A stretch of DNA of 64,000 nucleotides from an uncultured delta proteobacterium. GTDB lineage: Bacteria; Desulfobacterota; Binatia; Binatales; Binataceae. The notes below the pieces were generated by a model, which was given only the letters and a program-made list of their open reading frames with translations, had not been told where the DNA came from and made no database searches. Every line of letters starts with the position of its first letter. Position 1 is the stretch's first letter. Shown here one piece after another: positions 14,153 through 23,893 of the stretch. The stretch lies in assembly GCA_963721485.1 (NCBI GenBank), contig CAVRJV010000014.1, positions 72,443 through 136,442 of the forward strand, in the 5' to 3' direction. Made by a program: the position numbers and the translations under genes.

Positions 14153-17100
14153 GTTTCCTCCTTGAGAGTGGCAACGTTTTCCCGACCGTCATCCAGCGTG
14201 ATGTTTTCCACCGCATCGCGAATTGCTTCGAGCAGCGTGGCCTTTCTGACCGGCTTGGTTACGTGCGCGTCGCATCCCGCGACTTTCGTGCGAAGCATAG
14301 CGTCGTCGAGCGCCGACGCAGTTAACGCCAGGATGGGAGTGTGCGGGCGATTGTTCGCGCGCTCCCAGTCGCGAATCGCGGCGGTCGCTTCGTAACCGTC
14401 TATGTTCGGCATCTGGATATCCATCAGGACTACGTCGAATTTCCCGGCGACAAATTTGGCGATCGCCTGCCGGCCGTCTTCCGCTTCGTCGAGACGATAG
14501 GGGGTCTTCTTCAGGTACGCGCGAATCAAAGCGCGGTTGTCGTTGGAATCGTCGGCCAGGAGAATCTGCAGCGGACGATCGAGAACCGCGGATTGCGCCG
14601 ATGACAGTGCGATCGCCGGCCTCACCAACGGGTCGCTGCGCATCGGGACCGGTTCCCCCGCGCGCGCTCGCGCAACCGCCGCGAACAACTCCGCACGCCG
14701 CACCGGCTTGACGATATAGTTGTCGATCCCGATTGCGCGCAGGCGGGCAACTTCCAGCGCGAGGTCCCGGGTGCCAACCATCATCACGATTCGCGCATGC
14801 CCGGGTGCACCGCCCGTCAGGTATTCCGCGACTTCGAAGGATCCCGGCGCCGGCATCGCGCGGTCGAGCAGCACGACCTGGAAGTGCGAATCGCGCGCGC
14901 CGTCGCTGCGGAGTTCCGCGAGCGCACCGGCTGCCGACGAGGCCTGCGTCACATCCGCCCCGCGCGCCGTCAACAGGTCCGAGACAATCGAGCGGGCGTC
15001 GGCGCTGTCATCGATAAGCAGAACCCTCGTTCCGGCGAGTTCCCGGCCCGACGACTCCGATCGCGCCGGCGCGGCCGCAGCTGCGAATTGTGCGGTGAAC
15101 GAAAACGCGCTACCGGTTCCCGGCTCGCTCTCAACGGTAACCCGGCCGTGCATGAGCGCGACCAGCCGCGACACGATCGCCAGGCCAAGGCCGCTGCCGC
15201 CGTACTTGCGCGAGGTCGAAGAGTCGGCCTGGCTGAAAGGCTTGAACAGAAGGTGGCGTTTGTCGGCGGGAATTCCGATACCGGTGTCGGTCACCGTGAA
15301 TTTGAGTCCGACTGCCGACGATGCTGCCCGGGTCGAGTCCGGATCGCCCTCGACCGTCACCAGCACCTGTCCCTGATGCGTAAATTTGATCGCGTTGCCG
15401 ACCAGGTTGATCAGGATCTGGCTGAGCCGCAACGGATCGCCGAGAGCAAGCTCCGGGACTTCAGGCGCGAACCGCACCATCAGATCGAGGCCTTTCTCAT
15501 CCGCGCGGATCGCGAGGGTCTCGAGCACTTTCTCGGCCACGTCCCTGAGATTGAACTCGACCGCTTCGAGGCTGATACGGCCGCTCTCGACCTTGGCGAG
15601 ATCGAGGATGCTGTTGATCAGCGCCAGCAGCGCGTGCCCGTTGCTGATCACGGTGCTCAGGTATCTGCGCTGTTCGTCGCCCAGCTCGGTTTCCATCAAC
15701 AGGTCGGCCATCCCGAGGATCGAGTTCATCGGTGTGCGAATCTCGTGCGACATGCTCGACAGGAACTCCGACTTGGCGCGCGACGCGGCCAGCGCCGCCT
15801 CACGCGCGGCGACCAGCTCGCGCTGGGTCATCTTGATATCGGCGACCCCGCGCGAAATAGTCAGGCAGCAAACCTGCCCGTACAGGTCCAGATTTACCGC
15901 CGACAGCAGGACCGGCTGCTCCGAGCCGTCCTTCATGCGGAACGCCACCTCGAGGTTCCGGACCTCGTTGGTTCTGCCGAGCTGGTCGGCGAAGGCGATC
16001 ATCTCATCCGGATGAATCCACAAATTGAGATCGGCGAAATGGTGGCCGACGGCCTCTTCGCGCGAAAATCCGGTTGCATTAATGAATTGCTGGTTGACGT
16101 CCAGACAGGTTCCGTCGACTCCCGACAGCGTCATGCTGTCGAGGTTCGCGTCGAAAATCTTGCGCAGCGCCGCGAGACTGTCGCGCAGACGAATCTCGAC
16201 GCGCTTTATCTCGGTGATGTCCCGTGTCATCGAGATGACACACGGCTCGCCGTCAACTTCGACCACCGACGCCGAGATCAGGTTGGTCGATTCGGCGCCG
16301 TCCTTGCGCCGCTGCGTAATCTCCATGTTGTTGACGCGGCCGGTATCCCGAATGCAGTCGAGAAAGCGGCGCAACTCCGCGACGTGCGGCCACGTCCCGA
16401 GCGCAATCACGCTGGTCCCGAGCACGTCGTCGCGCGTGTAGCCAGCGACCTGGTACTTGTCGTTCACGGTAATGAAGCGGCCGTCGGCGAGGCAGTTGAT
16501 TGCGATGTTTTCCGGCGACGCGTCGAAGACTTTGCGCAGCATCGATTCGCTGGCCTGCAAGCGGGCATGATCGTGGTCGCGCGCCGCAGCGATTTCGGCG
16601 TGCAGCTTCATCTCGTGCCTGAGCAATCGATCGTTCTCCGCCAGCGCCGCGATCCGATCGGCGAGCCACTGCCGATAGCGCCCAGCGTGAATCGCCGTGG
16701 TTTGCGCCAACGCAAGCGCGCTGATGACGATGGTCCAGGCGACCGGGAGGCTCGTATCCGGCGTCGGCGTGCATAGCGAGTAGGCGGCCAATGCCAGCAT
16801 CCCGCTTGCTTCGAGCGCTGCCTGCCACAGTGGGTTCCAGGGGATCAACGCGCCCGCGCCGAAGAACACCATCAGGATCGACGCCACCAGCACGTCGCTG
16901 TCGCTGCTGAGCACCGCTATCCACGCCGTCATCGCCAGGCTCGACGAGCACAATGCCAGAGCGAACGGCCGCCAATGACGCATCGCGGCCGGCGATACGG
17001 TTGCGACTACCGCGATCAGACCGATCGCAATGCTCGCGATATGGACCGGCAACGCCGCCGCGAAACTGTGCGGATACGCATTGCGATCAAGCACCGTGTA

Positions 17101-17343
17101 AATGATCTGAAAGGCGAAGATCGCAAGGGAGCCTGCGCGCAACATCGGCGCGACCAGTTTGGGATTGTCACTGGCGTCGGCCGCGACTCTCGGGCGATCG
17201 CTCGCAGCGACGGCCGGCTTTACCTCGATGCCGAAGGTTGAGGCGGAGCAAGCTCCTGGGGCCAACGCAGCCGCACCGTTGACTGCGTGAAGCGAATCAC
17301 GTTTGCCAGCGTTCGCGGCGGACGATTCGGTGCGATAGTCCAC
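14137..17343 (-). CDS. Membrane hybrid histidine kinase: TM region, 2 PAS, HisKA, HATPase, 2 REC
   Basis: FLSSMSHEIRTPMN, NLVGNAIKFT, DTGIGI, GSGLGLAI, two receivers (LLDRAMP and LMDIQMP). Confidence 0.95.
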   Translation of the reverse strand: MDYRTESSAANAGKRDSLHAVNGAAALAPGACSASTFGIEVKPAVAASDRPRVAADASDNPKLVAPMLRAGSLAIFAFQIIYTVLDRNAYPHSFAAALPVHIASIAIGLIAVVATVSPAAMRHWRPFALALCSSSLAMTAWIAVLSSDSDVLVASILMVFFGAGALIPWNPLWQAALEASGMLALAAYSLCTPTPDTSLPVAWTIVISALALAQTTAIHAGRYRQWLADRIAALAENDRLLRHEMKLHAEIAAARDHDHARLQASESMLRKVFDASPENIAINCLADGRFITVNDKYQVAGYTRDDVLGTSVIALGTWPHVAELRRFLDCIRDTGRVNNMEITQRRKDGAESTNLISASVVEVDGEPCVISMTRDITEIKRVEIRLRDSLAALRKIFDANLDSMTLSGVDGTCLDVNQQFINATGFSREEAVGHHFADLNLWIHPDEMIAFADQLGRTNEVRNLEVAFRMKDGSEQPVLLSAVNLDLYGQVCCLTISRGVADIKMTQRELVAAREAALAASRAKSEFLSSMSHEIRTPMNSILGMADLLMETELGDEQRRYLSTVISNGHALLALINSILDLAKVESGRISLEAVEFNLRDVAEKVLETLAIRADEKGLDLMVRFAPEVPELALGDPLRLSQILINLVGNAIKFTHQGQVLVTVEGDPDSTRAASSAVGLKFTVTDTGIGIPADKRHLLFKPFSQADSSTSRKYGGSGLGLAIVSRLVALMHGRVTVESEPGTGSAFSFTAQFAAAAAPARSESSGRELAGTRVLLIDDSADARSIVSDLLTARGADVTQASSAAGALAELRSDGARDSHFQVVLLDRAMPAPGSFEVAEYLTGGAPGHARIVMMVGTRDLALEVARLRAIGIDNYIVKPVRRAELFAAVARARAGEPVPMRSDPLVRPAIALSSAQSAVLDRPLQILLADDSNDNRALIRAYLKKTPYRLDEAEDGRQAIAKFVAGKFDVVLMDIQMPNIDGYEATAAIRDWERANNRPHTPILALTASALDDAMLRTKVAGCDAHVTKPVRKATLLEAIRDAVENITLDDGRENVATLKEETCRTE

Positions 17344-17484
17344 GGCTCACAGGAAGCAAATCCAATGCCCTCACCGAGCATTGCAACGACTTGCTATCGC
17401 CGGCTGCCGTTGGCTTCGGTAGCCGAACCTTTACCGTGTCGCGAAGGATGTCCCAAAATGCATCGGGCCAATGCCGAAGTAGTC

Positions 17485-18642
17485 TCAGCCGCGCAGCGCC
17501 GCCTCGAAGTCTTCGATCAAGTCGTCGCTCGATTCGAGACCAACGGACAGACGCACCAGCCCGTCGCCGATTCCTGCCCGCGCGCGCTCAGCCGCCGACA
17601 TTCCTGAGTGCGAAGTCGTCGACGGGCGCGTGATCAGGGTCTCGACGCCGCCGAGGCTCGGCGCGCTGATTGGTATCGTCACGCGATCCATGAAACTCTG
17701 CGCCGCGTCGAGGCCGCCCTCCAACTCGAAACTCAGCACGCCGCCGAAGCCGTCGAACAGCTCGCATGCGCGGAGATGATTCGGGTGGCTTTCGAGTCCG
17801 GGATAGTTCACCCGCGCGACCGCGGCGTGCTGCTCGAGCCATCGCGCGATCTTGAGCGCGCTTTCGTTCTGATGGCGTACGCGCACGCCGAGCGTCTTCA
17901 TCCCGCGATGCAGCAGGAAGCATGCGTGCGGATCGAGCGTGCCGCCGAGATGGTTCAGCGTATGCGTGATGCTTTCGACCAGGTCCGCGCGCCCGATCAC
18001 TGCGCCCGCCACGATGTCGCTGTGGCCGTTGAGGTACTTGGTGCCGCTGTGAAGCGAGAGGTCGAAGCCGATTTCCGCGGGCCGAAAATTAATCGGGCTC
18101 GCGAAAGTATTGTCGATGATCGAGACGAGCCCGTTCTCGGCCGCGAAATCCACGGCCGCTTGCAAGTCGCTCACCTGCAGCAGCGGATTCGACATCGACT
18201 CGACGTAGATGGCCTTGGTGTTGGGACGAATCGCCTCGCGCCACGTGGCGGGCTCGTCGCCGTCGATGAAATCCACCGACAACCCCAGGCGCGGAAACTC
18301 CTCGACGAACAGATCGTGCGTGCCGCCATATACGCAGTCCTGCGCGAGCAGATGCCCACCGCCGGCCAGCACGGTGAGCAGCGCCGCCGATATCGCCGCC
18401 ATCCCGCTGCCCGCGACCAGCGCAGCCTCCGCATTCTCGAGCGCCGCCAGCTTGGCGTGCAGCACCGCGTGATTGGGCGTGTTGTTGAGCCGGATGTAGC
18501 GCAGGTCGTGGTAGTTGGTCTGCCCGGCGTACTCGAAGGTCGAGGATTGGAAGATCGGCATCGAGACCGCGCCGCCGATCAGCGGCTCCGGTTCGCCGGC
18601 ATGAATGAGCTTGGTGTCGAGTCCTTTGATAAGTCGGGCCAT
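17485..18642 (-). CDS. PLP-dependent Cys/Met metabolism enzyme (cystathionine gamma-synthase/lyase family)
   Basis: PIFQSSTF, GSGMAAI, DNTFASP, HSGTKYLNGHSD (PLP Lys), SLGGVETL, RLSVGLE. Confidence 0.93.
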   Translation of the reverse strand: MARLIKGLDTKLIHAGEPEPLIGGAVSMPIFQSSTFEYAGQTNYHDLRYIRLNNTPNHAVLHAKLAALENAEAALVAGSGMAAISAALLTVLAGGGHLLAQDCVYGGTHDLFVEEFPRLGLSVDFIDGDEPATWREAIRPNTKAIYVESMSNPLLQVSDLQAAVDFAAENGLVSIIDNTFASPINFRPAEIGFDLSLHSGTKYLNGHSDIVAGAVIGRADLVESITHTLNHLGGTLDPHACFLLHRGMKTLGVRVRHQNESALKIARWLEQHAAVARVNYPGLESHPNHLRACELFDGFGGVLSFELEGGLDAAQSFMDRVTIPISAPSLGGVETLITRPSTTSHSGMSAAERARAGIGDGLVRLSVGLESSDDLIEDFEAALRG

Positions 18643-18660
18643 GCGACGACATTTATCACT

Positions 18661-18685
18661 CGGCGCGTCAAGGAAAATAGGGCGC
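18661..18685 (-). repeat. Direct repeat A: displaced copy of the membrane-protein gene 3' end (APYFP-stop)
   Basis: cggcgcgtcaaggaaaatagggcgc vs cggtgcgtcagggaaaataggtcgc at 21372-21396, 22/25 identical. Confidence 0.75.
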
Positions 18686-19144
18686 CCGCTCGATTCGCGA
18701 CGGCAAGTCACGCTGTCAAACGTTGTTCTGAATTGAGATTTGGAGTTTGGTTGAGATATTTTCTTTTCTTCCGTTTCCGCAATCAGTTGAGAGCGGTCGA
18801 GTGAAGGAAAGCGGTGCGGGAGAGATCTGATCTGCGATCCGGCGTGTTCACGGGTGGGACGGAACGATGACGGCGAATTGGTGGAGTTCGGCTGCTGGTA
18901 GGGGAGTGGGCTGGTGGGTGTGAGAGGTGAAGTCATTCCGCATATTATGGCATGGCTGGGTGACAACGGTTGTCATGGCCGCTGCCGTACGGCCGAAGTC
19001 GGCTTGATCGCCTTCAGTAGGCGCAGGAGCAATTATTTTCATTTTTTATCTGTTCTTGGATGCGCGATTGCTTTGCCGCCTTCCGAATCGAAACCACTGT
19101 GGCTGCAACTGTCCCGGCGCCAGCGCGCTCGGTGTGCAATGCCG

Positions 19145-20242
19145 TCACGGCAACGGACGCTTCTTCATATCGTTGATCGCTTCCATCAGGTTGACGGTGT
19201 CGTTCACGTCCAGCGTATCGCCGCTGTAGCGAAGCTCAAGAAGCCCTTGCAGATTTGATGGGAGTTTTACTCCTTGCTTCACAATGAGGATAAAGCGACT
19301 CCCATATAGCGCCATGGCCGCACCTATCTCGATAAGAACATCGTCGTTGAGGACGATATGTTCGTTGCCCTCACTATCTACAAGGTGGCGCTCGTCCTCG
19401 ACATGAATGATAGCCGACCCGCACGACCGCATCTCTTCCATAACTTTGGAAGGAACCGGCTGGGAGACAGTCTGTATCTGAACAGATACCACCGCCTCCA
19501 ACTCGCCGAAGGCAAGCAGCTTCTTGACCGGTTCGATAAGCCCTTTGTTTTTGCCGTGGGTTATGAAGACTCTTCTGGCCCGGCCATCTACTACGGGCGC
19601 GGAAGGTAGGGCAGCACCGTTCTTTGTTGATGCGGTCGATTGTTCGTCAGTGTCCTTGTTCGATTCGGGTTCGGCCGGCTCGCTTCCATTCGAGTCGGGA
19701 GTTGTCGTACCGCTGAGGTCTACGTATTTGCGCCCCTTGATTTCTTGTAAGAATCCAACCGCTTCAGCGCCTTCGACTATAAGCTTCAGGACCTCGGCAG
19801 TTCGCTCTCGAGGCACACCGAACTCCATTAGAACATTCTCTCCAATTGAGTCCCTCGGCAGTGAAGCGTTGTCGTATTTCTTGAGAAACTCTCGGATCAC
19901 GCGTGGCCGCAGGAGTGCCTCGCGTTTTGCGGCCTTATCGTCTCCTTCGGTAGTTGGTCTGACTATTCGCATTCCCAGCGAGGAGATTGAGATGGTGTCG
20001 GCATTATAACCTCCTGTTGTTAACCCGTACGCTATCGATGCACCGGTCAACATCCTGAACCCACTGGAGGTCGGTTGTACCTCCAATGCTCTTGCGACTT
20101 GCAACGGCGCAGTCGGCTTGTATCCGTAGTTCTCTCCTATCGATGCGGGCACCCGAATCGCTCTCTTAAGTGAACAGCTCGGAATGTCCACTTGACTGAC
20201 ATACGTTCGCAACTTTTCTACTTTCTTCTTGTCCTTTGGCAT
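19145..20242 (-). CDS. TIR-like nucleotide-binding domain protein (CAP12/Pycsar TIR-like C-terminus) with a helical N-terminal domain
   Basis: RRVFITHGKN...LNDDVLIEIGAAMAL...KLPSNLQG matches the TIR-like family pattern; acidic disordered linker. Confidence 0.82.
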   Translation of the reverse strand: MPKDKKKVEKLRTYVSQVDIPSCSLKRAIRVPASIGENYGYKPTAPLQVARALEVQPTSSGFRMLTGASIAYGLTTGGYNADTISISSLGMRIVRPTTEGDDKAAKREALLRPRVIREFLKKYDNASLPRDSIGENVLMEFGVPRERTAEVLKLIVEGAEAVGFLQEIKGRKYVDLSGTTTPDSNGSEPAEPESNKDTDEQSTASTKNGAALPSAPVVDGRARRVFITHGKNKGLIEPVKKLLAFGELEAVVSVQIQTVSQPVPSKVMEEMRSCGSAIIHVEDERHLVDSEGNEHIVLNDDVLIEIGAAMALYGSRFILIVKQGVKLPSNLQGLLELRYSGDTLDVNDTVNLMEAINDMKKRPLP

Positions 20243-20287
20243 CTGCACTCCGCGGCAGTTTACCCGAATCGACTGCTAGTTCAGTCA

Positions 20288-20316
20288 AATGTAGTCGGAT
20301 TCTGACGCTTGCGCAA
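20288..20316 (-). promoter_or_regulatory. Putative sigma70 promoter of the TIR gene
   Basis: Minus strand TTGCGC-N17-TACATT, ~45 bp upstream of the ATG; TTGCGCAA palindrome overlaps the -35. Confidence 0.55.
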
Positions 20317-20831
20317 TAGGCTCTATTTCCGAGATAAATTAGGTCGCAAGAGCGACAATCCGTATCGCGTGAGGGTAAGTTGTGGCCCACCGTTTCGCAA
20401 TCGCCTACCCGTATCCGGTCGTCGGTGTACGCCGTAGAGATGCGAGCTTGAGCCGAGTCGGCTGGCGCGACTAAGCGCGGGATACACTTCATCAGGCCGA
20501 CCTCGGCGTCGCCCTGAGGACCCGTGTTTGAGACCTTTACGAAGTCCCTCCACTTACGCTTCAAACAGTACAACTCAAACACTAGGGTGAAGTCGCGCTT
20601 TGCTTTCGGTGCAACATTGGGGTATCTGGTGCCGCAACGGTACCTTTGGTTTGTGCTCAGCGTAGTCCAAAAGTCGCAAGAGGTGCTGATCCCGAGCAGA
20701 AGAAATGAGAGTAGTCCGGATTCGTTGTTCCCCTCTTCGACCCCGGTTGAACCGCGATACGGATTTCCATTGTTGAACGCGATCTGATCCTCGCTTTGCT
20801 TCAGTCGCGCAACAAATCGAGGAGCAAGAGT

Positions 20832-20860
20832 TTGCCGGCCGTCAATAAATCTGTTAACTT
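20832..20860 (+). promoter_or_regulatory. Putative sigma70 promoter with extended -10 for the small secreted protein
   Basis: TTGCCG-N17-TAACTT with upstream TG; RBS GGAGGA at 20879. Confidence 0.55.
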
Positions 20861-20889
20861 CCAGTGAAATTCGCATTTGGAGGATATCG

Positions 20890-21159
20890 ATGAAAACGAT
20901 CGTATACGCTCTATTATTGGTGGCGTGGGTCGGAGCTACCAACGCATGGGCTCAACAGCACGATCCGAATCCGAATAAAGACCCAGAAGTGCAGCAGGGT
21001 TACGACGAAAATCAAGAGCAGCATCGCCAGAAAGATACGACCGAGACTTACACGGTTCATAAAACAGGCGAGGGGCACGGCGGCATTCCCGACAGCGGAA
21101 ACTACGATCCTCCGAAGACGAAGGATGATTCCCAAGAGAAGAAAGATAACCCCAATTAA
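20890..21159 (+). CDS. Small secreted, acidic, probably disordered protein (89 aa)
   Basis: Signal peptide MKTIVYALLLVAWVGATNAWA, strong RBS and promoter. Confidence 0.75.
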   Translation: MKTIVYALLLVAWVGATNAWAQQHDPNPNKDPEVQQGYDENQEQHRQKDTTETYTVHKTGEGHGGIPDSGNYDPPKTKDDSQEKKDNPN

Positions 21160-21160
21160 G

Positions 21161-21226
21161 AAACCGTCGGCCGTCGCAATCGACAGTTCGGGCCACGTCT
21201 GGGTGACAAACTTCGGCAACGGTAAG
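21161..21226 (+). pseudogene. NHL/beta-propeller repeat remnant
   Basis: Translates to KPSAVAIDSSGHVWVTNFGNGK, with no start codon. Confidence 0.6.
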
Positions 21227-21338
21227 CGCGCAGGTTTGTGGACGACGTAACGCGTCTGGTCGTCCGGTCTCTGCGAACGTCGTGATCTGATGACCAGCGC
21301 GCGAGCCGCTCTCTACGCCATCACATTCTGGTGACCTA

Positions 21339-21362
21339 GTGGGGCGGGCCGCCGTGCCCGCC
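21339..21362. repeat. REP-like GC hairpin preceded by GTGG at the islet edge
   Basis: GTGG-GGCGGGC-cgccgt-GCCCGCC. Confidence 0.45.
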
Positions 21363-21371
21363 GCCGACATC

Positions 21372-21396
21372 CGGTGCGTCAGGGAAAATAGGTCGC
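21372..21396 (-). repeat. Direct repeat B: current 3' end of the membrane-protein gene (ATYFP-stop)
   Basis: Partner of 18661-18685. Confidence 0.75.
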
Positions 21397-22938
21397 TGCT
21401 GGAGTGCCGTTGGGGGCGGCGACGTTGCCAACTACGGGCGCCACGCCGGGGAGCGCGGCGCGGCCGAAGAGGGCTGCGGTTTGATCGCTGTATAGTAGAT
21501 GCCAGCGCGGGTCTTTTCTGACGAGGTCGGCGCCCTTGGTATCCACGCCCATCAGGATGTAGTCGTGGGGATAGGCGTCGAGGAGTTGTTCCGAGCCGGG
21601 CATGCCGTAGAAGAATTTCGCGTAGTCGCCTTCCTGCTTGTCTGAATAGACCAGTTCGCCGCGCGGATCGATATAAACCTTGAACGCGTCGGATGCGTGC
21701 CAGAGGATGTACGAGCCCCATTCGAATTGCGGCAGGATGTTGCCGTGAAGTTTGCGATCCTGCATGAAGGCGAGCGCGCCCGCCGGCATCGGCTTCCAGG
21801 TTTTCAGGCGATTCGAGAAAGCTCCACCGACGAGTGCGAGAGCGACCGCGCAGATTGCGAGCAGCGCTGCGGGCGGTTCGCGATCGACGACGGGTTCGCG
21901 GGCGGCACGTCGAGCGACCGCGAGGCTCGCATGGCGGGCTAGCGGAATGGCGACGGCGATCACGCCGACCGCGACGTTGCGGGCGGCATAGAAAGCGGCG
22001 GCGATAAAGATTGCGGCGACTGCTGTCATCGGTGCGTCGTCGAGGTCGGGGGCGAGCGCGACCGCCGCGACAAATCCGGCGAACATCAGCATCGGCGCAA
22101 CGTACTGGAGCAACTCCTTCGGGTCGGTGCGCCAATTCGAGAGCATCATTGTAGTTAGCGGCACCCAGTCGGCGATGACCTGCCGGATGAGTGGGTCGCC
22201 GACCGAATGCGCGACGCCGGTCCAGAGGCCGATGCCGAAGGGATTGATGAGAGTAGCGAGCGCGCATCCGAATGTGATCAATGCGAGCTTCCATGCAGAG
22301 GACAGGCGGCCGGCGTCGCCGAACCATCCCAAGGCGAACATGACCGCGGTGGCGATACCCATCGCGCCGAGGCCGACGATGTAGCCGCCGTGAAGGTTTG
22401 CCCACAATGTGAACATCGGGAGCAGCGGCCACAGCGTCGCGTCGCGGCGGTAGACCTCGAGCGCGAGCGCCATCATGATGACGGCGATCATCATGAAGGT
22501 GAAGAGCTGCGGCCGAAATTGCATCTGGGTCGAGATGGCGACGGCGCTGAGAATCAGCGTGAGGCGTTGCACTCGCGGCGTCGCGTCACTGCAGGAAATG
22601 CCGATCGCCAATGCGACTATCAGGATGCTCGAGCAGATCAGCTTCAGCAGCTTGAGACCGAAGACGCCGAGATGCGCGTAGAAGAAGGCGAGCGCCACCT
22701 GCGACAGCCATTCGTGATTGTGCCAGGGCATGTTGGCGGCGGCGTAAGAGTAGGTGTCGAAGCGCGGGATGTGTCCGGTGCGCAGCGTGGTCGCGCCGGT
22801 GAGCATGTGGATCCAGAGATCCGGCTCGGCGAAGTTGTCGGCCGTGGCGAGCGCGATCGACAGGATCACCGTCCATCGCGAGGCCGAGAGCAGCGAATAG
22901 CGTGGCAGCTCAGGCTGCTGCAAGTCGCGCGAGACTCC
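21379..22938 (-). CDS. Polytopic membrane protein, possibly GT-C-like (start approximate)
   Basis: EPDLWIH...G, NHEWLSQV, RPQLFTF, LWANLHGG, many TM segments, C-terminal soluble domain (YIDPR). Confidence 0.75.
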   Translation of the reverse strand, partial: GVSRDLQQPELPRYSLLSASRWTVILSIALATADNFAEPDLWIHMLTGATTLRTGHIPRFDTYSYAAANMPWHNHEWLSQVALAFFYAHLGVFGLKLLKLICSSILIVALAIGISCSDATPRVQRLTLILSAVAISTQMQFRPQLFTFMMIAVIMMALALEVYRRDATLWPLLPMFTLWANLHGGYIVGLGAMGIATAVMFALGWFGDAGRLSSAWKLALITFGCALATLINPFGIGLWTGVAHSVGDPLIRQVIADWVPLTTMMLSNWRTDPKELLQYVAPMLMFAGFVAAVALAPDLDDAPMTAVAAIFIAAAFYAARNVAVGVIAVAIPLARHASLAVARRAAREPVVDREPPAALLAICAVALALVGGAFSNRLKTWKPMPAGALAFMQDRKLHGNILPQFEWGSYILWHASDAFKVYIDPRGELVYSDKQEGDYAKFFYGMPGSEQLLDAYPHDYILMGVDTKGADLVRKDPRWHLLYSDQTAALFGRAALPGVAPVVGNVAAPNGTPAATYFP

Positions 22939-23893
22939 GCGGTCGCATCGCCGCTTGCACGATCGGAATGGAAACAACCAGAATCGAGGCGCCCGCTATC
23001 ACATCGACAAAGTAATGATGCCCCGCGAAGGGAGTAGCTATCAGCATTAGTACATTCACAATCGCAACAGGCAGAAAGGTTCGCAGCGGCGGCCGATGTA
23101 CATACACCAGCAGAATAGCCATTACGGCATGGCACGACGGAAACGCTACGATACCGTTCAGGTCGGCCAGCGTGAATTTCGTCAAAGTGCCGTTGCGGAT
23201 CGATACGAGCACCGCCGACCACGTTGGCATCCCTCCGATTGTGTAAGGCCCAAGAGCCGGAAAAGGACCAGACAGAGTTACTGAAACCAGCATCGCGAAC
23301 ATTCCAATCCACAGCAGTTCGCGGTTTCGGTCGCTGCGCTTGATCAACGCGAAATATCCGATCGACGTGAAAACCTCGATCATCATGCTGTTGTAACAAT
23401 GTTCGAGCGTGTATCGGATCAACCATCTCGAGGTAGTGATCCAGTCGTAGTCCGCGCTCCAGTTGAGTCCGAGCGCCGCATCCATCCGCGCAAACTGGAC
23501 GTCCCGCAGCGGCATCCGAAGCGTCGCCACCACGTAACTGTAGATGACAAGCGCGACCGCGAACGCGATCCACAGCGCACAGTAGTGCGCCGCCTCGGCC
23601 ACCTGCCGCGCGCGTCCCGTGAACTCGACCAGGAAGCCGAACGCCGCGAACACCGCGACTCCCTTTACCGCGGGCATGAGTCCGCCAATGTCGAAGCCCG
23701 CGTGCCTTGCCCAAAGCCAGTCCGTCGCGGCAAGGATCAGGATGACTGCCCATGCTCTCAGTATGTAGTCGCGCTCGTCGAGAAATTTCGACGAGCGCGC
23801 GTTCGTGGTGACAGGATTGCGCGGCGCTTGTGCGAGCGCCTCCGAATGGCCCGCAACGGGCATCGACGAATCGATATCGATACTTTTGTCCAA
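22910..23893 (-). CDS. PAP2-family (PAP2_3/IPC-synthase-like) membrane phosphotransferase/phosphatase
   Basis: FPALGP, AFPSCHA, GHHYFVDVIAG catalytic motifs. Confidence 0.85.
   Translation of the reverse strand: MDKSIDIDSSMPVAGHSEALAQAPRNPVTTNARSSKFLDERDYILRAWAVILILAATDWLWARHAGFDIGGLMPAVKGVAVFAAFGFLVEFTGRARQVAEAAHYCALWIAFAVALVIYSYVVATLRMPLRDVQFARMDAALGLNWSADYDWITTSRWLIRYTLEHCYNSMMIEVFTSIGYFALIKRSDRNRELLWIGMFAMLVSVTLSGPFPALGPYTIGGMPTWSAVLVSIRNGTLTKFTLADLNGIVAFPSCHAVMAILLVYVHRPPLRTFLPVAIVNVLMLIATPFAGHHYFVDVIAGASILVVSIPIVQAAMRPRSLARLAAA

Follow-up and report, generated by a model that had tools for sequence, protein, structure and literature searches.

How the last codons of one gene come to stand, detached from that gene, directly in front of its neighbour is the question raised by a locus in contig CAVRJV010000014.1 (assembly GCA_963721485.1) of an uncultured delta proteobacterium of the Binataceae, of which a stretch of 64,000 nucleotides (nt), hereafter the window, was analysed. 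The two neighbours are a membrane-protein gene (MEM) and a gene for a Cys/Met-metabolism pyridoxal phosphate (PLP) enzyme, referred to below as the PLP gene, and between them lies an islet that contains a TIR-like gene. The 25-nt segments at the two ends of the islet are a direct duplication of the MEM-PLP junction, bounding 2.69 kb of low-GC DNA. The left copy retains the last codons and the stop of MEM and the right copy the conserved leader of the PLP gene, and neither flanking gene is damaged. The explanation preferred as a whole, in which a duplicated junction, a composite islet and a recombination mechanism are combined, is considered rather probable. The genome of the window (G000; 4,636,013 bases, completeness score 63%) was compared within a set of 47 genomes of its genus, itself counted in, which were sampled at one genome per species and are not mutually independent. 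G-numbers denote these genomes, L-numbers the fetched loci and metagenome contigs, and DR a junction copy. The unpublished genome G024 enters both the empty-site counts and the counts of TetR-module locations.

The segments at 18661-18685 (cggcgcgtcaaggaaaatagggcgc) and 21372-21396 (cggtgcgtcagggaaaataggtcgc) were found in a repeat search to be identical at 22 of 25 bases (88%), exactly as the original prediction, made by reading the sequence, had described them, and the pair is the top-ranked direct repeat within 18300-21800. Read on the minus strand, copy 2 gives A-T-Y-F-P-stop, which is the 3' end of the 532-aa MEM, and copy 1 gives A-P-Y-F-P-stop. The stop of this orphan copy (18670-18668) lies 25 nt before the ATG of the PLP gene (18642), the distance that had been estimated. 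The match also stood up to comparison with shuffled sequence: in 200 dinucleotide shuffles made of the 3.5 kb region, 22/25 was never reached, the best score being 21, obtained once, and the two 150-nt boundary windows scored 22, whereas 100 shuffles gave no more than 19. If one mismatch is allowed, the 21-nt core is present at exactly two sites in the whole assembly, and both are the repeat copies. The hexamer CGACAT, which had been noted just beyond each copy, is indeed common to both but out of register, lying 8 nt past copy 1 and 1 nt past copy 2. A gapped alignment, with 7 bases missing in two gaps, connects it with the repeat and raises the match to about 35 bases. The same short spacer form precedes the same repetitive extragenic palindromic (REP) element in G045 and in metagenome contig L050, and the sharing of CGACAT is for this reason probably a matter of homology rather than coincidence. 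The higher AT content that had been seen in the islet was likewise measured: the GC content of 18686-21371 (2,686 nt) is 53.9%, compared with 63.5-64.8% in the two flanking genes and 62.8% in the window.

The state of the junction in the genus was surveyed with an 841-nt probe in all 47 genomes. The probe found one contiguous match in 21 genomes, G024 among them, and a nearly contiguous match with a longer spacer in two (G006, G020). It was split by an insert on one contig in six (G000, G003, G007, G016, G051, G054) and over two contigs in one (G045). The other states were a tandem MEM duplication with a truncated PLP gene (G058), a 42-nt PLP relic (G057), a fragmentary match (G047), the PLP half only (G015, G017, G043), the MEM half only (G002, G008, G014, G041, G042, G050, G053, G056) and no match at all (G005, G010, G019). 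In G058 only about 34 codons of the PLP gene are left, with a DUF1329 gene after them (L037), and the relic in G057 lies between MEM and a histidine kinase gene (L038). An exact scan of metagenomes for the junction pattern returned 21 contigs; 16 are unoccupied, four are occupied (L043, L048, L050, L058) and in L054 MEM is mostly deleted. A first reading of 19 loci had placed the PLP start about 40 nt past the MEM stop in 10 of them, with a longer spacer in two more. A 33-nt junction motif was found in 28 of 165 family genomes (G000 among them), at the MEM-PLP locus only and in one genus only, the 118 genomes of 29 other genera having none.

Unoccupied spacers read ...ACCTATTTTCCCTGA CGCGCCGAGTGATAAATGTCGTGGCAT(CGGAGGCNGC)ATG, and the orphan copy in the window together with the next 18 nt equals this stop-to-ATG spacer. 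Therefore, the PLP-side copy is the ancestral junction and the islet lies upstream of that copy. Comparison across the genus shows that the adjacency of MEM and PLP, about 40 nt apart, is the ancestral arrangement and that the islet was inserted between them. The empty sites are free of scars, and the islet has the polymorphic presence and absence that characterises a genomic islet. The predicted ancestral order, MEM followed by PLP, is thus borne out by the 21 contiguous genomes, the two with a longer spacer and the 16 unoccupied metagenome contigs. The original prediction had named two contrary outcomes, namely islet-free relatives in which the genes are not adjacent and a match at chance level, and neither was found.

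The junction was further predicted to be an insertion hotspot, in line with which other cargo was found in G016, G003, G007, G051, G054, G045, G058, L043, L048, L050 and L058. Inserts of 0.55-5.4 kb occupy it in eight genus genomes (G000 included) and four metagenome contigs. They hold a DinB-family gene in G016 (0.64 kb), genes for a TetR regulator, a methyltransferase (MT), DinB and a HEAT-repeat protein in G054 (3.0 kb), the same TetR trio with further open reading frames (ORFs) at a contig break in G045, and a BNR/sortilin-like protein gene in G051 (1.66 kb). The largest insert, in G003 (5.4 kb), consists of RHS-repeat C-terminal fragments, small ORFs and an NHL-repeat protein gene. That of G007 (4.1 kb) strongly matches PDC-M61A (E 1.6e-66) and PDC-M61B (E 7.5e-143), PDC being worded as phage defence candidate in bioRxiv 10.1101/2024.01.29.577857. 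The HEAT gene stands alone in L043 and L058 (0.9 kb each), and the 0.55 kb cargo of L048 has no assigned identity. Several of the occupied sites share ancestry, and independent insertions are therefore fewer than occupied genomes. The TetR-methyltransferase-DinB trio (about 2 kb) is also present elsewhere in the genus: it was found in 16 of the 47 genomes, in 12 at loci other than MEM-PLP. At six such loci that were fetched (L061-L066, from G006, G012, G003, G007, G004 and G062, respectively), its flanks are unrelated, its boundaries fall at gene ends and no repeats were seen. Therefore, gene-sized modules move by illegitimate events in this genus. A domain scan of 19 cargo ORFs from six genus genomes, together with the ORFs of the window islet, found no recombinase domain.

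Several details of these inserts were also recorded. The PDC-M61A/B pair in G007 forms a two-gene candidate defence system at L031 11438-14630, the B protein having an Hsp70/actin-like ATPase region. In the cargo of G003 (L030 9498-14903), one RHS fragment has a weak glucosaminidase-like region that scores below the Pfam cut-off, the small ORFs lie between the RHS fragments and the NHL-repeat protein gene, and a full-length rhs gene is lacking; in the same genome the PLP gene is apparently frameshifted near codon 274. The BNR insert of G051 (L033) is bracketed by inverted copies of another hairpin repeat (GTGGCACAGGCT..AGCCTGTGATT), one of which is separated from the right junction copy by 13 nt. 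This is the position held in G016 and G054 by the same REP element as in the window, 13 nt upstream of the right copy.

Every insert that was checked is bounded on both sides by a duplicated junction, 22-106 nt in length. Besides the 25 nt of the window (88% identity), the repeats measure 44 nt in G016 (93%), 59 nt in G003 (98%), 106 nt in G007 (96%; extending to PLP codon 15), about 22 nt in G051 and G054 (exact), 43 nt in L043 (exact) and 44 nt in L058 (exact). An 18-nt core, CCTATTTTCCNTGAYGYR, has one site in unoccupied genomes and two sites in G000, G003, G007, G016, G051, G054 and G058, with no site beyond the junction in any of the 47 genomes. An apparent second core at position 387 of L055 and fuzzy matches in L048, L049 and alternative loci were rejected as chance matches. 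Two-cassette arrays occur in both orders. In G054, which has a third, degenerate internal copy, the order is MEM-DR-(TetR, MT, DinB, REP)-DR-(HEAT, REP)-DR-PLP, and in L050 it is the opposite, (HEAT)-DR-(REP, TetR, MT, DinB)-DR-PLP. Upstream of the internal copy in G045, the MEM 3' end can still be recognised over at least 70 nt, and in G058 MEM, the spacer and the PLP 5' end form an intact tandem duplication. Upstream of the orphan copies of G000, G003 and G007, no similarity to MEM was detected (tblastn, E<=1e-3). The length of the left copy follows the direction of the first cargo gene. It is long (+30 to +37, or into PLP) where this gene is co-directional (G016, L043, L058, G003 and the internal copy of G054) and short (+7 to +11) in the case of a convergent gene (G051 and the TetR cassettes), G007 being the one exception among the sites compared. 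This pattern suggests that the spacer is retained where it is used.

Within L043 and within L058 the left copy is identical to the right copy, whereas between the two contigs the repeats differ at 4 or more positions, the HEAT cassettes are 77% identical and the PLP flanks 92%. From this it follows that the cassette is old and that its two flanking copies undergo concerted evolution, which points to gene conversion. In a flank tree, built on 400 nt and weakly resolved, all seven occupied genomes fall in one clade of 17 genomes, interleaved with 10 unoccupied ones, which corresponds to 2-5 changes of state. Crossing over between the repeats would delete a cassette and restore a perfect empty site, and this fits the interleaving.

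The islet of the window is itself composite. The order past the MEM stop is 8 nt of spacer, ATGTCGGC, the REP element and about 100 nt that correspond to the 3' end of a convergent TetR gene. The left end of the islet matches G045 at 82.7% over 208 nt (blastn) and, in part, G054 and L050. The DNA homology to the TetR cassette of these three begins at 21234 and extends to the REP element, and from 21233 down to 18686 there is no match to the other islets compared. The gene remnant named in the original prediction proved to be the end of a TetR gene (its last 26 codons), abutting a 48-nt NHL-like fragment; elsewhere in G000, at C11:119059-119789, NHL-type repeat units form a tandem array. The hexamer CGACAT sits outside the REP consensus, and since REP copies elsewhere have unrelated upstream flanks, it was assigned to the shortened spacer and not to the REP element. 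The alignments show the left 140 nt (short junction, REP and TetR 3' remnant) as what is left of a TetR-methyltransferase-DinB cassette, and the remainder (TIR-like gene, small secreted-looking protein gene and spacers) as later DNA that was not found in the 46 other genus genomes. By the same comparison, the junction duplication is older than the TIR gene and was inherited from the earlier TetR-methyltransferase-DinB cassette, of which the left end is preserved at 21234-21371. The TIR segment can be regarded as foreign because its GC content is 53% and the TIR gene is present in only one of the 47 genomes. Foreign low-GC DNA thus appears to have replaced most of the older TetR cassette within an already duplicated junction. 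The REP element has 32 copies with no more than 2 mismatches in G000, some in inverted pairs, and the only Y1-transposase gene of this genome, a REP-associated tyrosine transposase (RAYT)-like gene (PF01797, C11:443102-443329), lies between copies at 442873 on one side and 443403 and 443452 on the other. Many near-identical palindromic copies together with a single Y1-transposase gene flanked by them are what defines a REP/RAYT system. The features of the locus are collected in the table.

Features of the MEM-PLP locus, with positions counted from the first letter of the window
Feature	Position	Strand	Evidence or remark
PLP gene, right-hand flank, 385 aa	17485..18642	-	PF01053, E 3.6e-125
Ancestral stop-to-ATG spacer, PLP leader	18643..18667	-	equals spacer of unoccupied relatives, CGCGCCGAGTGATAAATGTCGTGGCAT...
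Right repeat copy: orphan last 5 codons and stop of MEM plus 7 nt	18661..18685	-	
Featureless islet DNA, 459 nt, GC 55%	18686..19144	.	no Pfam, Rfam or cargo match
TIR-like gene, intact, 367 aa	19145..20248	-	PF10137
641 nt upstream of TIR gene, GC 53%	20249..20889	.	overlaps 258-aa ORF 20166-20942
Gene for 89-aa small protein, N-terminal signal-like segment	20890..21159	+	homology
NHL-repeat-like fragment, 48 nt	21164..21211	+	matches tandem repeats at C11:119059-119789, same genome
TetR-family remnant, last 26 codons	21205..21282	+	tblastn E 5.6e-6 against G054 TetR residues 186-211 of 211
REP element (GGCGGGCACGGCGGCCCGCCCCAC), 24 nt	21339..21362	-	genome copies
GATGTCGGC, shortened ancestral spacer (ATGTCGTGGC) minus 7 nt, holds CGACAT	21363..21371	-	gapped alignment
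Left repeat copy: functional last 5 codons and stop of MEM plus 7 nt	21372..21396	-	
MEM, multi-pass membrane protein, 532 aa, left-hand flank	21379..22977	-	

The PLP gene is 86-95% identical in relatives, and the NCBIfam models for cystathionine gamma-synthase and methionine gamma-lyase match its product only below their cut-offs. The first 7 nt of the ancestral spacer fall inside the right repeat copy. The MEM protein has no sequence match in Pfam, NCBIfam or PDB. Its language-model features resemble those of GT-C glycosyltransferases (PMT_2/STT3/GT87) with a score of 0.92-0.93, a model-based likeness that may serve as a lead only. MEM has paralogs in the genus (3-7 matches in each genome), which often stand three or four in a row, and a PAP2-family gene lies upstream of MEM, with its end overlapping it (window 22910-23893). 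A search of Rfam over 17000-23000 at E<=0.1 returned nothing. The left junction is also covered by an independent sequencing run, in which a 240-base contig spans 21293-21532 with zero differences. In four soil runs compared with 17800-22300, only fragments of 151-259 bases at low depth were obtained and none joins across the islet; among these short contigs no excision joint was seen.

Among the islet genes, the one for a secreted peptide had been recognised in the original prediction, and it corresponds to the 89-aa ORF, for whose product 20 homologs were found at E<=1e-3, the best being 86% identical and 86 aa long. The homologs with E values up to 1e-10 measure 86-106 aa, and the predicted signal peptide is signal-like as judged by eye. 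A 258-aa ORF at 20166-20942 was considered as a partner gene of the TIR gene and rejected, having matched only itself among 5.8 billion clusters; it has no Pfam, PADLOC or NCBIfam match and is probably non-coding. The gene that had been called TIR-like was confirmed as such by a match of residues 226-341 of its product to PF10137, the TIR domain of CAP12/Pycsar effectors (E 3.9e-16; 59.6 bits against a cut-off of 24.7). The PADLOC matches, to the single-gene candidate PDC-S35 (4.3e-8) and to a TIR effector (1.3e-7), are weak, and a profile of 40 sequences matches PycTIR (8jsj) with E 1.4e-6. In an AlphaFold2 model (mean predicted local distance difference test score 72.6, predicted template modelling score 0.41), helix-helix-helix-hairpin units at 27-96 and 103-176 are followed by a disordered linker (183-219) and then by a TIR-like fold. 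Read from the secondary structure of the model, the two N-terminal units look like winged helices. The top Foldseek matches are TIR-STING structures (7un8, E 3.8e-5, and 9lmq), and the next are MilB CMP N-glycosidase and the SARM1 TIR. Residue E307 does not vary in any of the 40 sequences and is aligned with the Glu of LEFG in PycTIR; it may be the acidic residue of the NxxxE-G motif, a putative catalytic Glu. The family is large, with more than 4500 homologs, the best 120 of which are 62-82% identical and similar in length. Few of the homologs are named, these being Terriglobales and Candidatus Sulfotelmatobacter records. The gene has no match in the other 46 genus genomes.

The C-terminal domain of this protein resembles PycTIR and Cap12 (TIR-STING) in its matches to PF10137, to PycTIR 8jsj and to the TIR-STING structures. 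However, Pfam, PADLOC and NCBIfam scans of the islet ORFs found neither a cyclase gene nor a STING or cNMP-binding sensor domain, and the N-terminal half is instead built of the two winged-helix-like domains. Therefore, the gene does not belong to a cyclic oligonucleotide-based antiphage signalling system (CBASS) or to a Pycsar system. Judged by its folds only, the protein most likely acts on its own as a defence effector that degrades nucleotides or NAD and is regulated via its winged-helix domains.

How the duplicated junction arose and is maintained can be explained in several ways. Homologous recombination at the repeats, combined with illegitimate insertion into a neutral gap, is given about even chances. 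The first duplication would have been an illegitimate event, for example a tandem duplication of MEM, spacer and PLP 5' end of the kind seen in G058; the tandem in G058, the tandem runs of MEM paralogs and the MEM remnant in G045 make such an origin plausible. The DNA between the copies would then have become a selectively neutral gap in which the duplicated MEM copy decayed, and foreign DNA could have entered this gap, or been swapped within it, through illegitimate recombination. A Ku homolog in G000 and the lack of recombinase domains in the scanned cargo ORFs count in favour of this mechanism. Homologous recombination at the repeats would delete cassettes, leaving a perfect empty site, and would homogenise the two copies by gene conversion. 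Arrays might be built or reordered through the pairing of incoming DNA with a long flank on one side and a short repeat on the other. Several observations weigh against this mechanism. The full TATTTTCC-TGA is conserved in each of the 13 right or internal copies, 12 of which start about 2-24 nt upstream of this motif, a clustering expected from a defined recombination site. Erosion to a functional boundary would account for it only if the putative boundary is real, and since a sigma-70 consensus scan found no promoter-like site on the minus strand of the spacer, the idea of a promoter kept by the right copy is left with conservation as its basis. Moreover, three different cargoes are each followed by a similar 10-nt motif (AAGAGASACC) ahead of the right copy, a repeat length of 22-25 nt is low for RecA-type recombination, and in the window lineage the first duplication is inferred rather than observed. 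The finding that G000 has no matching recombinase or element elsewhere counts for little in this respect, since the assembly is 63% complete.

The main competitor of homologous recombination is a recombinase acting in trans, which is regarded as possible, though somewhat doubtful. The 18-22 nt core at the MEM stop would be an att site, and integrase-less cassettes resembling cis-mobilizable elements (CIMEs) would be integrated, excised and accreted there by a recombinase of an autonomous element or of the host. A constant minimal core, which is present in every copy, fits such a site. No additional core that could represent attP was found in the 47 genus genomes, and the 21-nt form has 0 matches in IMG/VR. 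The clustering of the right-copy boundaries upstream of TATTTTCC, the short conserved motif ahead of several right copies, for which the Dehalococcoides ssrA islands as described in PMC3146451 offer an analogy, and the two-cassette arrays in either order also fit this explanation, as does the position of the site, integration at a gene 3' end with restoration of that end being the classical pattern in the account of PMC5704250. On the other hand, repeat lengths vary from 22 to 106 nt, and the copies co-vary with the host lineage although the cassette between them is old. The scanned cargo ORFs contain no recombinase domain, the four metagenome-contig cargoes lying outside that scan, and of nine PF00589 matches in G000 none is within the window. 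The core is unlike the single classical dif-like site of G000 (GCTTCGCATAAGAAGTATTATGTAAACT, contig C14, minus strand), and the junction as single-stranded DNA does not form a significant hairpin, folding no better than shuffled sequence (z-scores +0.73, +0.04 and -1.63). It is improbable that each insertion duplicated its own target through a staggered break near the MEM stop, the overhangs being filled, e.g. by Ku/LigD, and 20-100 nt of host sequence thereby doubled. Variable repeat lengths, a Ku homolog in G000 and the fact that both copies bear the variants of their own host lineage in L043, L058, G003 and G007 would be consistent with such an event. Nevertheless, the boundaries of the HEAT cassette are constant across lineages whose cassettes are 77-81% identical, which argues for old shared ancestry with gene conversion rather than for fresh events; the left junction of the window was inherited from the TetR cassette, and a recurrent break at the MEM stop has no known reason. 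There is, finally, the notion that the resemblance of the two 25-nt segments is due to chance or to a motif conserved independently, such as a terminator or operator, and that the 2.7 kb are ancestral. A window-wide search at 22/25 in GC-rich DNA is expected to give roughly one hit, by estimate rather than computation, but the shuffles never reached the observed score, the core is confined to two genome sites, the TIR gene was not found in the 46 other genomes, and the empty sites of 23 genus genomes join exactly the two flanks, which refutes this notion and leaves its probability negligible. Taken together, homologous and illegitimate recombination carry about as much weight as everything else combined, a recombinase in trans a distinctly smaller part and repeated target duplication a slight one, and the rest is assigned to no reading.

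The locus shares features with several known systems. The ssrA islands of Dehalococcoides are described in PMC3146451 as low-GC islands downstream of a single-copy gene, with a 20 bp direct repeat of the gene 3' end; 16 islands have a serine-recombinase integration module, and some units without integration genes are suggested there to be cis-mobilizable. The MEM-PLP islets resemble them, as far as that source describes them, in low GC content, in direct repeats of a 3' end, in tandem units and in a short motif upstream of the repeats. They differ in that no integration module was found in the scanned cargo ORFs of the six occupied genus sites and the window, in that the target is the end of a protein-coding gene together with the leader of its neighbour, and in that the repeats measure 22-106 nt and co-vary with the host, with units of just 0.55-5.4 kb. 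Streptococcal CIMEs, according to the review PMC5704250, have lost integration and transfer genes, have kept attL and attR, and accrete in tandem at target-gene 3' ends. There, an autonomous integrative and conjugative element or integrative and mobilizable element (IME) is known as partner, whereas here neither a partner nor a matching attP was found among the PF00589 matches of G000, the 47 genomes and IMG/VR. Direct repeats of the target-gene 3' end are present at both edges, as in IMEs and CIMEs, and no integrase or recombinase was found at the site in the scanned cargo ORFs or in the PF00589 search of the window. A DDE transposon or insertion sequence is not indicated either, because the arms of the 15 inverted-repeat pairs found in 18300-21800 in no case coincide with the two islet ends and the duplications, at 22-106 nt, are not of fixed length. 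Compared with Xer/dif-dependent elements (IMEX and pdif modules), the repeat is unlike the single dif-like site of G000.

Integron arrays consist of small cargo units that are separated by one repeated site and lie downstream of a fixed chromosomal point. In the MEM-PLP arrays, small units are similarly parted by repeat copies, and the upstream leader kept by co-directional units could feed them; in contrast to integrons, there is no intI nearby and no attC-like hairpin, gene orientation is mixed and cassettes comprise up to three genes. It is rather unlikely, yet conceivable, that the 18-22 nt core is the dedicated recombination site of an undescribed integron-like cassette-capture system, whose recombinase would be encoded elsewhere or be a host enzyme and by which defence and stress cassettes (HEAT, DinB, the TetR trio, PDC-M61 and the TIR-like gene) would be inserted, stacked, reordered and removed at one address. 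If this were true, the leader of the downstream gene, in its duplicated form, would drive the expression of co-directional cassettes. Hotspots and defence islands are intervals between conserved core genes that hold differing accessory and defence genes among relatives, and in the present case PDC-M61 (G007), the TIR-like gene (G000) and RHS fragments (G003) occupy one syntenic interval. This interval differs from them in the precise junction duplication that marks it and in its scar-free empty sites.

Summarizing, the feature belongs to a known kind, an insertion hotspot marked by a duplicated gene junction, with a modest chance that it represents an undescribed mechanism of cassette exchange. 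It is a clean and well-sampled case in which uncultured soil bacteria keep one gene junction as a long-lived variable region while its neighbours remain unharmed. A short duplication saves the end of one gene and the leader of the other, and the content between is free to be exchanged, accumulated in arrays or lost, no scar being left behind. Among the cargo are candidate immunity genes, namely PDC-M61 and a TIR-like protein of a very large uncharacterised family, and the junction could therefore serve as a marker for new accessory and defence genes in the genus. Moreover, concerted evolution of the repeats is accompanied by divergence of the cassettes between them, which provides a natural system for separating the contributions of homologous and site-specific recombination to the turnover of genomic islands.

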